Source: Eledone cirrhosa (Eukaryota). Taken from it: a DNA stretch of 64,000 bases. Both the position numbers and the translations under genes were made by a program. The stretch covers positions 6,696,001 to 6,760,000 of the forward strand of contig OZ024748.1 in NCBI GenBank assembly GCA_964016885.1, given 5' to 3'. The notes under the pieces were generated by a model. That model worked only from the letters and a program-made list of their open reading frames with translations. It searched no databases and was not told where the DNA came from. Shown here one piece after another: positions 5,042 to 63,400 of this stretch (positions are counted from its first letter, which is position 1; each line of letters opens with the position of its first letter).

Positions 5042-5221
5042 CAATCTCAGAATTTAAATTGTAATAAATAAAGTCCAGTAATTGCCGTCGAAACGGCTTG
5101 AGCTCTGCCGTCGGGGTTAAACATACATTTTCCTATTACCCACTCTACTATACTAGTATTGAGTATTGAGTACTCTGGTGCGTTATGGTCCATCTGGTTC
5201 CTTACTACACTTCCTTCGTTA
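5039..5221 (+). mobile_element. Penelope-like terminal fragment, family A (3' half of HHR)
   Basis: GAAA-CGGC-ttgagctct-GCCG-TC^GGGGT at 5090-5117; flanked by (TA)n on both sides; 7 related copies in the window. Confidence 0.7.
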
Positions 5222-15654: not shown

Positions 15655-15708
<54 letters not shown>

Positions 15709-15734
15709 CAGCAGTAGTACTAGTAGTAGTAGTG

Positions 15735-15777
<43 letters not shown>

Positions 15778-15922
15778 CAGCAGCAGCAGCAGCAAAAGTT
15801 GAGAGGATGAGAGTTGTCACCAGTAGTTTCAGTGAGGTGACTACGACATTAGTCTAGACAACAGTAACATCAGTCAGACGGAGAGAAGCAATCATAGTAG
15901 TAGTAGTAGTAGTAGTAGCAGC

Positions 15923-15966
<44 letters not shown>

Positions 15967-16001
15967 CAGTAATGGTGGTGTTGGTGGTGGTGGTAATATT
16001 T

Positions 16002-16060
<59 letters not shown>

Positions 16061-16070
16061 GGTAATATTT

Positions 16071-16119
<49 letters not shown>

Positions 16120-16178
16120 CAGTAGTAGTAGTAGTAGTAGTAGCAGTAGTGGTGGTGTTGGTGGTGGTGGTAATATTT

Positions 16179-16218
<40 letters not shown>

Positions 16219-16253
16219 CAGTAGTGGTGGTGTTGGTGGTGGTGGTAATATTT

Positions 16254-16292
<39 letters not shown>

Positions 16293-16313
16293 TTGGTGGT
16301 GGTGGTAATATTT

Positions 16314-16350
<37 letters not shown>

Positions 16351-16570
16351 CAGTAGTAGTAGTAGTAGTAGTAGCAGTAGTGGTGGTGTTGGTGGTGGTG
16401 GTAATATTTGTAGTAGTAGTAGTAGTAGTAGTAGCAGCAGTAGCAGTAGTAGTAGTAGTAGCAGTAGTAGTAGTAGTAGTAGCAGCAGTAGCAGTAGTAG
16501 TAGTAGCAGTAGCAGTAGTAGTAGTAGTAGTAGTAGCAGTAGTAGTAGTAGTAGTAGTAGTAGCAGTAGC

Positions 16571-16647
<77 letters not shown>

Positions 16648-16693
16648 CAGTAGTAGTAGTAGCAGCAGCAGCAGTAGCAGCAGCAGCAGTAGT

Positions 16694-16725
<32 letters not shown>

Positions 16726-16744
16726 CAGTAGCAGCAGTAGCAGC

Positions 16745-16780
<36 letters not shown>
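15655..16780. repeat. Compound (GTA/GCA/GTG)n trinucleotide array
   Basis: Seen directly; accounts for the poly-Val and poly-Thr pseudo-ORFs. Confidence 0.95.
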
Positions 16781-16781
<1 letters not shown>

Positions 16782-28261: not shown

Positions 28262-29580
28262 GAGACATAAGCTGAAATGTAATAGAAATATATAGACCAT
28301 AGGCTCTGTCTTACTGGAAATATGTAGACAATAGGCTCTGTTTTAGTGGAAATATATAGACAATAGGCTCTGTCTTAGTGGAAATATATAGTAAGAGACA
28401 TAAGCTGAAATGTAATGGACATATATAAACCAAAGTGTTAGTGGAAATATATAGACCAAAGGCTGTGTGTGTTAGTTGAAATATATAGACCACAGGGCGT
28501 GTGTGTTAGTTGAAATATATAGACCAAAGTGTATGTTAGTGGAAATATATAGACCAAAGGGTGTGTTAGTGGAAATATATAGACCAAAGGGTGTGTTAGT
28601 GGAAATATATAGACCAAATGGTGTGTTAGTGGAAATATATAGACCAAAGGGTGTGTTAGTGGAAATGTATAGACCAAAGGGTATGTTAGTGGAAATATAT
28701 AGACCAAAGGGTGTGTTAGTGGAAATATATAGACCAAAGGGTGTGTTAGTGGAAATATATAGACCAAAGGGTGTGTTAGTGGAAATATATAGACCAAAGG
28801 GTGTGTTAGTGGAAATGTATAGACCAAAGGGTATGTTAGTGGAAATATATAGACCAAAGGGTGTGTTAGTGGAAATATATACACCAAAGGGTGTGTTAGT
28901 GGAAATATATACACCAAAGGGTATGTTAGTGGAAATATATAGACCAAATGGTGTGTTAGTGGAAATATATAGACCAAAGGGTGCGTTAGTGGAAATATAT
29001 TGACCAAAGGGTGTGTTAGTGGAAATATATAGACCAAAGGCTGTGTGTGTTAGTTGAAATATATAGACCACAGGGTGTGTGTGTTAGTGGAAATATATAG
29101 GCCAAAGGGTATGTTAGTGGAAATATATAGACCAAAGGGTATGTTAGTGGAAATATATAGACCAAAGGGTATGTTAGTGGAAATATATAGACCAAAGGGT
29201 GTGTTAGTGGAAATATATAGACCAAAGGGTGTGTTAGTGGAAATATATAGACCAAAGGGTGTGTTAGTGGAAATATATAGACCAAAGACTGTGTTAGTGG
29301 AAATATATAGACCAAAGGCTGTTTTAGTGGAAATATATATACCAAAGTATCTGTGTTAGTGGAAATATATAGACCAAAGTCTGTGTTAGTGGAAATATAT
29401 AGACCAAATGCTGTGTTAGTGGAAATATATAGACCAAAGGGTATGTTAGTGGAAATATATAGACTAAAGGGTGTGTTAGTGGAAATATATAGACCAAAGT
29501 ATCTGTGTTAGTGGAAATATATAGACCAAAGGCTGTGTTAGTGGAAATATATAGACCAAAGGCTGTGTTAGTGGAAATAT
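28262..29580. repeat. 30-bp minisatellite (GTGTGTTAGTGGAAATATATAGACCAAAGG)n, about 43 units
   Basis: Seen directly; accounts for the LVYIFPLTHP and VLVEIYRPKG repeat ORFs. Confidence 0.97.
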
Positions 29581-29763
29581 AAAGTAAGATAGACAGTTAC
29601 AAGCGGAGTGGTAGTGAATATAGGTAATGAAGAATTACAGAGTCAAGAAAGTAGAAAATTCACAAGAAAGAGAATGAGTAAATTGATGTTGACAGATTTA
29701 ATCCCGTTTGTTGTGTTGGATATGTGGAGAGTGATACTACTGATGTATATATATAAGTATATA

Positions 29764-33242: not shown

Positions 33243-33697
33243 TAAAGTTATATTTAAAATTGTTGGGTTACAACTAGTAAATATTTATAACTGATATAAA
33301 AGCACTCGACAAATATTTGGAGTATATTTACAATATTAAATAAATGGAAAACTATATTTATAAAACCATATCTATTTCATTATATATATTTCGGGGATAT
33401 CATATTAACAATATGCTATGCCTTCATCAGACAAAATACAATATAAACAGTTTTATAGATAAATATATTCGACATACCGTAATAAACATCAACTTCATTT
33501 GAAGAGGTTTACTCTAGCAGTAAACCTCTTCAAATGAAGTTGATGTTTATTACGGTATGTCGAATATATTTATCTATAAAACTGTTTATATTGTATTTTG
33601 TCTGATGAAGGCATAGCATATTGTTAATATGATATCCCCGAAATATATATAATGAAATAGATATGGTTTTATAAATATAGTTTTCCATTTATTTAAT

Positions 33698-33703
<6 letters not shown>
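33243..33703. mobile_element. Penelope-like fold-back insertion (family D) with a 185-bp inverted repeat
   Basis: Arms 33329-33513 and 33519-33703, 5-nt loop CTAGC; TA-flanked. Confidence 0.85.
33594..33659 (+). ncRNA. Type-I hammerhead ribozyme (family D); mirror copy on the minus strand at 33373-33438
   Basis: TATTTTGT-CTGATGA-aGGcATAgCATATT-gtt-AATATGaTATcCCc-GAAA-TATATA-TA^ATGAAATA. Confidence 0.8.
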
Positions 33704-36080: not shown

Positions 36081-36082
<2 letters not shown>

Positions 36083-36316
36083 CAAAGGAAGTGTGGTAAG
36101 GAACCAGATGGACCATAACGCACCAAAGTACTCAATACTTAGGGTAGTAGAGTGGGTAATAGGAACAAGTATGACCCCGACGGCAGAGGTCAAGCCGTTT
36201 CGAAGGCTAATTCTGGACTAAATGATTTAATCCACAATTGATTTAGTCCAGAATTAGCCGTCGAAACGGCTTGAGCTCTGCCGCCGGGGTCATACTTGTT
36301 CCTATTACCCACTCTA

Positions 36317-36323
<7 letters not shown>
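36081..36323. mobile_element. Family A fold-back insertion
   Basis: Inverted arms around a short loop near 36225-36240; both arms carry GAAACGGC..GCCG(T/C)CGGGGT. Confidence 0.8.
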
Positions 36324-36354
<31 letters not shown>

Positions 36355-41907: not shown

Positions 41908-41909
<2 letters not shown>

Positions 41910-42025
41910 CGAAGGAAATGTGGTAAGGAACCAGGTGGACCACAACGCACCAAAGTATTCAATCCATTTAGTCCAGAATTAGCCGTCGAAACGGCTTGAG
42001 CTCAGCCGTCGGGGTCTTACTGGTT

Positions 42026-42028
<3 letters not shown>
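41908..42028. mobile_element. Family A inverted (twin-priming-like) insertion
   Basis: Reverse-complemented 3' end joined to the sense HHR-half segment; both ends in (TA)n. Confidence 0.8.
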
Positions 42029-42067
<39 letters not shown>

Positions 42068-44301: not shown

Positions 44302-44934
44302 GTATATATATACATATAGATAAATATATATATATATGGATATATATGCATATAAATAAATATATATATACATATATATAAATATATATAATTATAAATA
44401 CATATATATATATATATAATTATAAATACATATATATATATATATAATTATAAATACATATATATATATAATTATAAATACTTATATATATATAATTATA
44501 AATACTTATATAATTATAGATACTTATATATATATAATTATAAATATATATATAATTATAAATACATATATATATATAATTATAAATACATATATATATA
44601 TATAATTATAAATACATATATATATATAATTATAAATACATATATATATATATAAATATAAATATATATATATAAATATAAATATATATATAGCGGCGAT
44701 GAATTAGTTTTGCGAGGTTTTTTATATGAAATCGTGTGTCGAAACAAATATTGTTATACTTGGGGAGGGTCATATTTGTGTAATATTGCCAGAATTAATA
44801 ACAGAACACACTCACTGTTTGGTTTGGTTTGGTTGGTTTTGCAACCATTACTGTTGGAAGCTCCCGGGAGCTTCAGTAATGGTTGCATTCTTTAAGGGTA
44901 TGTCAATATTTATTTATAAAACTGTTCTATATTA

Positions 44935-44999
44935 TATTTTATCTGATGAAAGCACACCATAATTTAACTTGGTGTCCTTGAAATATGTATAATGAAATA
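44935..44999 (+). ncRNA. Type-I hammerhead ribozyme (family D; element 44693-45040)
   Basis: TATTTTAT-CTGATGA-AAGcACACCA-loop-TGGTGTcCTT-GAAA-TATGTA-TA^ATGAAATA. Confidence 0.82.
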
Positions 45000-45038
45000 A
45001 ATATGGTTTTATAAATATAGTTTCCATTTATTAATATC

Positions 45039-45107
<69 letters not shown>

Positions 45108-50017: not shown

Positions 50018-50133
50018 CTAAGGCGGGTAAAATTCCCGAGATCCATGGACGAGTTCTCTCCAGCGGTCTCTGTCCCTCATCATCGCTGCCATGTCCTGCG
50101 TCTCCAACAGACCAGTGTCTGTCCTTAGGGCAT

Positions 50134-50138
<5 letters not shown>
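50018..50138 (-). mobile_element. 5'-truncated copy of the RTE LINE 3' end
   Basis: Reverse complement of about 4203-4323 with few mismatches; inserted in (TA)n. Confidence 0.88.
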
Positions 50139-50174
<36 letters not shown>

Positions 50175-50185
50175 TATATTCATAT

Positions 50186-50233
<48 letters not shown>

Positions 50234-50235
<2 letters not shown>

Positions 50236-50349
50236 CGAAGGAAATGTGGTAAGGAACCAGGTGGACCATAACGCACCAAAGTACTCAATACTTAGGGTAG
50301 TAGAGTGGGTAATAGGAACCAGTAAGACCCCATTGGGGTCTTACTGGTT

Positions 50350-50354
<5 letters not shown>
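50234..50354. mobile_element. Family A fold-back starting at the predicted HHR cleavage site
   Basis: ...GTAAGACCCC att GGGGTCTTAC...; 20-bp arms. Confidence 0.8.
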
Positions 50355-50400
<46 letters not shown>

Positions 50401-50949: not shown

Positions 50950-51143
50950 AACAAAGGAATTGTGATAAGGAACCAAATGGACCATAACGCACCAGAGTAC
51001 TCAATCAATACTTAGAGTAGTAGAGTGGGAAATAGAAAAAAGTATGACCCCGATGGCAGAGCTCAAGCCGTTTCGACGGCTATTTCTGGATAGAAATAGC
51101 CGTCGAAACGGCTTGAGCTCTGCCGTCGGGGTCATACTTTTTC

Positions 51144-51146
<3 letters not shown>
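50950..51146. mobile_element. Family A fold-back insertion
   Basis: Inverted arms centred near 51087-51091. Confidence 0.8.
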
Positions 51147-58458: not shown

Positions 58459-58492
<34 letters not shown>

Positions 58493-58536
58493 CATAATAA
58501 TATATAAGATCAAAAGATGGTTAAAAGAGGTCCATG

Positions 58537-58607
58537 TATTTTATTATGCGCATTTCAAAAACAAATATCATCATGCAATAACATTTGCGTTTTCGTCAGA
58601 TAAAATA
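58537..58607 (-). ncRNA. Type-I hammerhead ribozyme (family D relative)
   Basis: TATTTTAT-CTGACGA-AAAcGCAAATGTTATT-gcat-GATGATATTTGTtTTT-GAAA-TGCGCA-TA^ATAAAATA; perfect 8-bp stem I, palindromic stem III. Confidence 0.85.
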
Positions 58608-58770
58608 GGGAGACATGATATGAAGGTTAAAACACACTTGTGAATAGTGCAGTTTTAAATCAACATAGTAGAGTACTACTTATCTGATATCTGCATTGCC
58701 TTATTTTTCTACAATAAAACTCACCTTCTACATATATATATTTTTATATATATATATATAAATTATATAA

Positions 58771-60672: not shown

Positions 60673-61104
<432 letters not shown>

Positions 61105-63125: not shown

Positions 63126-63307
63126 AATATATATATATATGTAGAGGTTATATTTAATTTGTTGGGATTCAACAAGCTAAATATTTTTATAACTGATATA
63201 AAGCACTCAACAAATTATTGGAGTAAATATCCTGGAGATTCCAACCAGAATGGTTGCGTTTTTTTTAAGGGTATGTCAATATTTATTTATAAAACTAACC
63301 TATATTA

Positions 63308-63372
63308 TATTTTATCTGATGAAAGCGCACCATAGTATGCTCTGGTGGCCTTGAAATATGTATAATGAAATA
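63308..63372 (+). ncRNA. Type-I hammerhead ribozyme (family D; element 63141-63400, inverted structure)
   Basis: TATTTTAT-CTGATGA-AAGcgCACCA-loop-TGGTGgcCTT-GAAA-TATGTA-TA^ATGAAATA. Confidence 0.82.
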
Positions 63373-63400
63373 AATATAGTTTCCATTTGTTAATATATTG

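Follow-up and report, generated by a model that had tools for sequence, protein, structure and literature searches.

Does the point at which a short retroelement insertion turns back on itself record the place where its RNA template was cut by a ribozyme? The locus at 50234-50354 of the window, the latter being the whole stretch of 64,000 nucleotides analysed here, raises this question. It is a short head-to-head insertion inside (TA)n, which adjoins it on both sides, at 50138-50233 next to the end of the long arm and at 50352-50398 next to the end of the short arm; the window itself is animal-type, (TA)n-rich DNA from an assembly of 3.0 Gb. We number positions in the sense of the element, with 0 as the first G 3' of the predicted cut (GUC^GGGG) and negative values upstream, and by arm end we mean the 5'-most element base within an arm. 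The long arm (50234-50331, minus strand) covers element positions 0 to +96/+97, that is, the predicted 3' self-cleavage product as far as the distal fixed end, including an 80-nt one-sided tail. It is followed by an untemplated linker (50332-50334), ATT on the plus strand and AAT in the sense of the element, and by a short inverted arm (50335-50351, plus strand), which covers 0 to +16, the proximal fixed end, and is entirely contained within the long arm. The TAT at 50352-50354 is common to the element and the (TA)n target. The initial annotation had described the minus strand from GGGGTC to the 3' end, then ATT, then an inverted arm, and this was confirmed by position-wise reading, with 50335-50351 matching 0 to +16. 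It had also predicted a hammerhead and its cut site for what it called family A; here the long copies elsewhere in the genome complete the motif, but the copies in the window show its 3' half only, the 5' half of the ribozyme being absent from every family copy within the window.

The family is large and its anatomy is regular. A genome pattern search with a 25-mer from the long arm gave 7,461 exact matches, and the +16 end in (TA)n, the same type of end as that of the short arm, occurs 7,551 times in the subfamily of the window. The outer end of the long arm (+96/+97) likewise recurs in nearly all listed copies, so that insertions of the family into (TA)n have +16 and +97 as their fixed outer ends; (TA)n flanks both sides in 49 of 54 cut-proximal events. 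An intact parent, L076, lies elsewhere in the genome and consists of an inverted copy that carries the +97 end, a partial tandem, in which the long-arm sequence runs on into the ORF leader, an ORF of 718 aa, and a last pseudo-LTR ending at +16. The single ORF, shorter than 3 kb, encodes by motif a reverse transcriptase (RT) together with a GIY-YIG nuclease at the C-terminal end (RWR at 36, DKT at 116, FDI at 252, YRDDG at 347, CxCX5C at 571, AYIGLT at 604, CxxC at 669 and CxH at 697), and it has 2,218 homologues, while a Pfam search of it gave no match. In the available text of Craig et al. 2021 (PMC8557442), the Hydra clade of Penelope-like elements (PLEs) is marked by DKT, CxCX5C, a C-terminal GIY-YIG-type nuclease, CxxC, CxH and RWK, of which RWR is a conservative variant. 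Motifs and anatomy thus point to a Penelope-like element with features of the Hydra clade. A non-LTR retrozyme, composed of non-coding tandem units each with a hammerhead, was rejected as the identity of the family, which has a coding parent and, at this locus, a copy without the ribozyme.

The whole hammerhead motif is held by 3,988 long arms. The minimum-energy fold of L076:5795-5905 is a three-helix hammerhead with helix I open and with GAAA and NUH present: helix I is formed by ACCCC/GGGGU, seven bases (UUGAGAA) are unpaired, helix II carries a 39-nt loop, helix III carries a palindromic loop and ends at -2, and an unpaired C stands at the cut. When this structure, itself derived from one of 13 aligned copies, was laid on all 13, 90% of the cells were paired, versus 17-52% in slid controls. 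No compensatory (two-sided) change was found across these 13 copies, which are about 90% alike, the 3-8 pair included; the fold of L076:5795-5905 is no more stable than its shuffles (z 0.41), and Rfam gave no match, whether for the window or for the full motif. As for the core, a reading by eye of 100 listed among the 3,988 long arms found U at position 3 in 78 arms and C there in 22, G, U or A at position 7, and A at position 8 in 99; contigs from sequence runs vary at the same two places. The canonical C3-G8 core pair is absent; the window's subfamily has U3-A8, and others are mismatched. As far as the accessible texts go, U3-A8 is a natural, active hammerhead core variant (PMC3088659) which occurs in PLEs of Schistosoma (PMC4209133), and single mutants at position 3 or 8 lose activity, as cited by Frangieh et al. 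2024 (PMC11167929). We take the motif as a putative type I hammerhead, predicted to be self-cleaving with its U3-A8 core; the C3.A8 core would be impaired by the core pairing rule. The reading of the C3 core as CUGA-GA without position 7 was set aside, since the base that would then be G8 varies. About one fifth of the long arms (L252-L281 and the 100 listed of 3,988) have the mismatched C3.A8 core. Such ribozyme-impaired lineages appear to have amplified successfully, and because C3.A8 cores are common and their subfamilies spread well, cleavage seems dispensable.

Besides 50234-50354, the window holds five further copies of the family. The copy at 36082-36324 belongs to a second subfamily with A at +6 (A6) and is of the common form, with both arms ending near -45. 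At 41909-42030 the arm of the short end reaches -46 and that of the long end is represented by its last ~55 nt only, so the short-end arm extends further upstream; an older head-to-head copy at 50951-51145 has its junction near -35/-39, and a diverged copy on the plus strand (5071-5219) starts near -42, with no inverted arm seen. A more distant relative lies at 60697-60863, where GGUGU replaces GGGGU 3' of the cut. A second family, whose minimal hammerheads are canonical (CUGAUGA core, palindromic helix III), is inserted head-to-head in (TA)n at 33360-33700, a near-perfect palindrome, at 44850-45040 and at 63230-63400, and a third family, also with a minimal hammerhead, occurs on the minus strand at 58490-58700. 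Between (TA)n runs at 50018-50137 there is a 120-nt fragment which recurs next to a family copy in L021 and is probably the end of another retroelement. The window also includes a 30-bp minisatellite of ~38 copies (28435-29581) and a 1.1-kb (AGT)n array (15656-16781).

The initial annotation proposed a sharp peak of breakpoints at GTC^GGGGT as the test of its reading, and such a peak is what the genome contains. Junctions were counted by a joint parse of both arms, since extension of a single arm overruns through the self-complementarity of helix III. In the window's subfamily 314 matches have their junction between about +3 and -24, and the first 100 of them represent 96 distinct events. Of the 96, 20 carry a linker between two arms that both end at 0, 17 are CCCC/GGGG joins of the blunt type, and 11 combine a linker with a single arm at 0; 25 lie at the palindrome or at repeats of helix III, and 23 elsewhere. 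Considering only the arm ends in linker events, 51 of 72 fall at 0, with 5 at +1 and 2 at -1. A second pattern, open to all subfamilies, gave 40 of 76 linker-arm ends at 0 among the first 100 of 879 matches, a set that shares 19 events with the first. Among 28 distinct events with both arms at 0, no pair has the same flanks on both sides in the same orientation; the cut-site insertions arose at independent sites. The earlier remark that there was one copy only was mistaken, and the error ran in favour of its author's own model, as about a hundred copies stop exactly at the predicted cut, still a small minority of roughly 1.5-2% of insertions. In a control window from -10 to -25, about 5 of 50 events had linkers and no end was held in common (first 50 of 844 matches, by eye). 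In the third family, which is unrelated and whose minimal hammerhead is canonical, the 35 events listed genome-wide showed no clear peak: roughly half pair an arm at +3/+4 with one near -12, and the 8 junctions near the cut are all explicable by AT microhomology. A separate observation concerns L192 (G000:C1:424501100-424501650), where each arm continues from 0 into sequence at about +160 in the leader of the ORF and one of them completes a whole turn to 0 again; this single case has the appearance of a 160-nt RNA with its 3' end attached to the 5' end made by the cut, as a circle or by a repeated template jump, with 2-nt microhomology at the join.

Most insertions stop elsewhere. A set of 67 loci chosen without regard to the junction yielded 39 distinct short events after long or damaged ones, which did not parse, were dropped, and 34 of the 39 go no further upstream than -34 to -47. 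Both arms reach -44 in 1,453 events; the first 50 of these comprise 44 distinct ones, of which 38 stop at -44 to -46, 3 more have A/T runs there, 2 pass to -53, and 1 has an arm parsed to -52. The position -45, which is L076:5845 within the helix II loop, is thus a hard 5' boundary for most arms, with A/T runs at some junctions. This boundary is likely the start of transcription, which would split the ribozyme and leave an RNA starting near -45 without the enzyme strand. An internal promoter has been described for Penelope of D. virilis (PMC2377424, in the portion of the paper available). As most arms stop near -45, read as the transcription start, the main template would be uncleaved RNA, which agrees with what is accessible of Frangieh et al. 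2024 (PMC11167929). Contigs from sequence runs show a step in depth near -45 and also cross the cut-site fold-back, with linkers 1 and 2 nt shorter; both may derive from the assembled sample and so give no independent support. The A/T polarity at -44 was set aside as evidence, because stutter on a U-run could produce it.

A natural control is offered by subfamilies which differ in the core of the ribozyme. All 15 long arms typed in the window's subfamily have U3-A8, whereas of the A6 arms five carry C3.A8, one carries U3.G8 and one, which differs at +12 and lies outside the search pattern, carries U3-A8; some of the arms counted belong in pairs to one insertion. A6 shares with the window's subfamily the CG at the cut, the G-run, and helices I and III. 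Its 41 matches, all parsed, represent 39 events out of 1,709 +16 ends; both arms were placed at 0 in 3 of the 39 by script, one of which is a mis-parsed palindrome with an extra C and G, leaving 2, and no blunt CCCC/GGGG join was found among the 39. The difference in cut-site events, 37/96 (17 of the 37 being the blunt joins, formally also 2-nt CG microhomology) versus 3/39 or 2/39, is significant (P=3.0e-4 and P=4.6e-5, respectively), although it concerns one clean pair of subfamilies, with A6 cores typed on 7 long arms, and the subfamilies also differ in age, in protein and in the bases at -7, +6 and +11. Per +16 end, cut-site events amount to 1.5% in the window's subfamily and 0.12-0.18% in A6, a 9-13-fold reduction. 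Palindrome-class events are equally frequent per +16 end (1.04% versus 1.05%), and age therefore does not account for the gap. Less in line with this contrast, a mixed subfamily, C6, with 6 C3 and 3 U3 long arms, still has its junction at the cut in 6 of 29 events, and another U3-A8 subfamily (U3-U7-A8) in 6 of 18, versus 20 of 29 in the window's subfamily. Taken as a pattern in genomic DNA, the cut-site copies are likely a record of ribozyme cutting in living germ cells. That the template was the 3' self-cleavage product, as had been proposed for the locus, is supported by the peak and by this contrast, but it can hold for a minority of insertions only, as most arms stop near -45.

Among the alternatives, the one that survives best, though unlikely, is that RT stalls on uncleaved RNA, either where helix III has its foot or where the GGGG run ends, and that repair adds the linkers. 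Helix III of the full motif does end at -2, adjoining the peak, and stalls are idiosyncratic, so that subfamilies could fold differently for non-catalytic reasons. Yet A6, with the same helices I and III, has 9-13-fold fewer cut-site events; no linker peak stands at -15, although the most stable hairpin that the -45 RNA forms, a stronger one, has its base there; and the ends fall at 0 rather than at -1 (51 versus 2).

A second alternative accepts the cleaved RNA but supposes a single cDNA that, after running off, turned back on itself and served as primer for its own second strand. Such self-priming has been proposed for palindromes of this kind (PMC3846280, as far as the consulted part of the text goes), it was also the mechanism suggested for this locus, and it would yield the same palindrome, with an inverted arm wholly inside the long arm as at 50234-50354. 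We regard it as highly improbable on account of the arms and the linkers. Of the two arms, it is the +16 one that extends further 5', by at least 5 nt, in 12 of the 39 unselected events, and the +97 one in 2; at L076 the +16 arm is longer by kilobases. One folded cDNA cannot give a longer +16 arm (unless by later deletions). The outer end of the short arm is fixed at +16, as seen in 7,551 copies. Single-base linkers are A or T in 11 of 11 cases, and 13 of 17 multi-base linkers fit a pattern of C, A, T and G in that order, each repeated any number of times or none, the other 4 resembling local templated copies. Snap-back priming would require an added G; the linkers instead look like additions of A or C at the 3' ends of two opposed cDNAs, so that AAT at 50332-50334 may consist of AA from one cDNA and A from the other. 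Moreover, the protein of Poseidon from the anole extends both strands, according to the accessible text of PMC11167929. Of the earlier proposal, then, run-off at the cleaved 5' end with a few added nucleotides fits the untemplated A/T additions, but more probably with two cDNAs than with one.

A third possibility places the origin at the DNA level, where longer palindromic insertions would lose their centre later or the arms would anneal at the CG straddling the cut; we give it scarcely any credence. Elsewhere the prevailing junctions are of the microhomology type (49 of 92 events in one parse, and most of the -10 to -25 control window), and the cut lies at the centre of a CG dinucleotide. In 31 of the 96 events, however, an arm end at 0 stands next to untemplated bases, which microhomology does not give, and A6 has the same CG yet none of the blunt joins. 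The core bases that differ between the subfamilies fall outside the short insertions, which also argues against a cause at the DNA level. An assembly artefact as the source of head-to-head copies is dismissed by the unequal arms, fixed ends and variable linkers.

We thus consider it probable, from the arrangement of the sequences, that the locus is a two-armed Hydra-type PLE insertion whose template was an RNA cut by its own hammerhead and copied twice, from both ends of a broken (TA)n. The process would start from a family with an intact RT and GIY-YIG parent, a (TA)n target and the fixed outer ends +16 and +97, all of which are seen in the genome. Judging from Frangieh et al. 2024 and the anatomy of the copies, both target strands would be cut, each priming a cDNA at one start site. 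The cDNAs would extend to the RNA's 5' end, usually near -45 in the helix II loop, where the stops are seen in DNA and the RNA ends are presumed. A minority of RNAs would arise by read-through of an entire pseudo-LTR, form the complete U3-A8 hammerhead and cut themselves, the 3' product starting at 0 and keeping both start sites. RT may then run off at 0 and add A or C, and host end-joining may fuse the two cDNA ends into CCCC-linker-GGGG. A wider reading, which we advance tentatively and would sooner doubt than believe, is that the normal transcript starts inside its own ribozyme, so that only read-through RNA folds and cuts; the hammerhead would be a filter by which the element is released from read-through RNA of host or tandem origin, and the junctions would be a quantitative fossil assay of germ-line ribozyme activity, able to rank natural core variants across all PLE families without experiment.

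Whether PLE hammerheads cut in vivo, and to what purpose, is treated as open in the available texts of PMC4209133, PMC8557442 and PMC11167929. Here the genome appears to record germ-line cleavage, and a cleaved RNA with an uncapped end appears to be retrotransposable, at about 2% of insertions. A natural mismatch control is on offer, the same junction count is usable for any family of many copies, and the analysis names exact constructs and RNA ends for testing. Our search of the openly accessible literature found no report of a peak of Penelope insertion junctions at the cut site of the hammerhead.

With the Hydra clade, as far as Craig et al. 2021 (PMC8557442) could be consulted, the family shares the short single ORF with DKT, CxCX5C, C-terminal GIY-YIG-type nuclease, CxxC and CxH, the (TA)n target, the inverted 5'-truncated copy, the one-sided tail and the hammerhead in the pseudo-LTR. 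It differs in RWR for RWK, in a tail of ~80 nt versus 30-40 there, and in the U3-A8 core with a 39-nt helix II loop, whereas the hammerhead there is canonical; the function of the ribozyme is described there as unclear and, in that part of the text, a junction peak is not reported. The hammerheads of PLE pseudo-LTRs surveyed by Cervera and de la Pena 2014 (PMC4209133, in the text available) are similarly of type I, with a palindromic loop III and, in Schistosoma, U3-A8. Poseidon of Anolis carolinensis, in what is accessible of Frangieh et al. 2024 (PMC11167929), resembles our family in that both target strands are cut and extended, the tail is set by two internal start sites and unprocessed RNA is the dominant template. 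According to the same portion, cleavage was observed there in vitro only, with the protein present, and RNA-seq gave no reads that end at the cut; in our family, unlike Poseidon, a minority of the insertions in the genome have their ends exactly at the cut and follow the sequence of the core. The closest precedent for junctions that record a ribozyme cut is R2 with its HDV-like ribozymes, for which genomic 5' junctions record the cleavage site and untemplated bases are added on run-off (Eickbush et al. 2013, PMC3774820, within the part of the text seen). The ribozyme and the class of element are different, and in R2 cleavage forms the 5' end of essentially every template, with the junction made to target DNA, whereas in the family described here it marks about 2% of insertions and cDNA is joined to cDNA.
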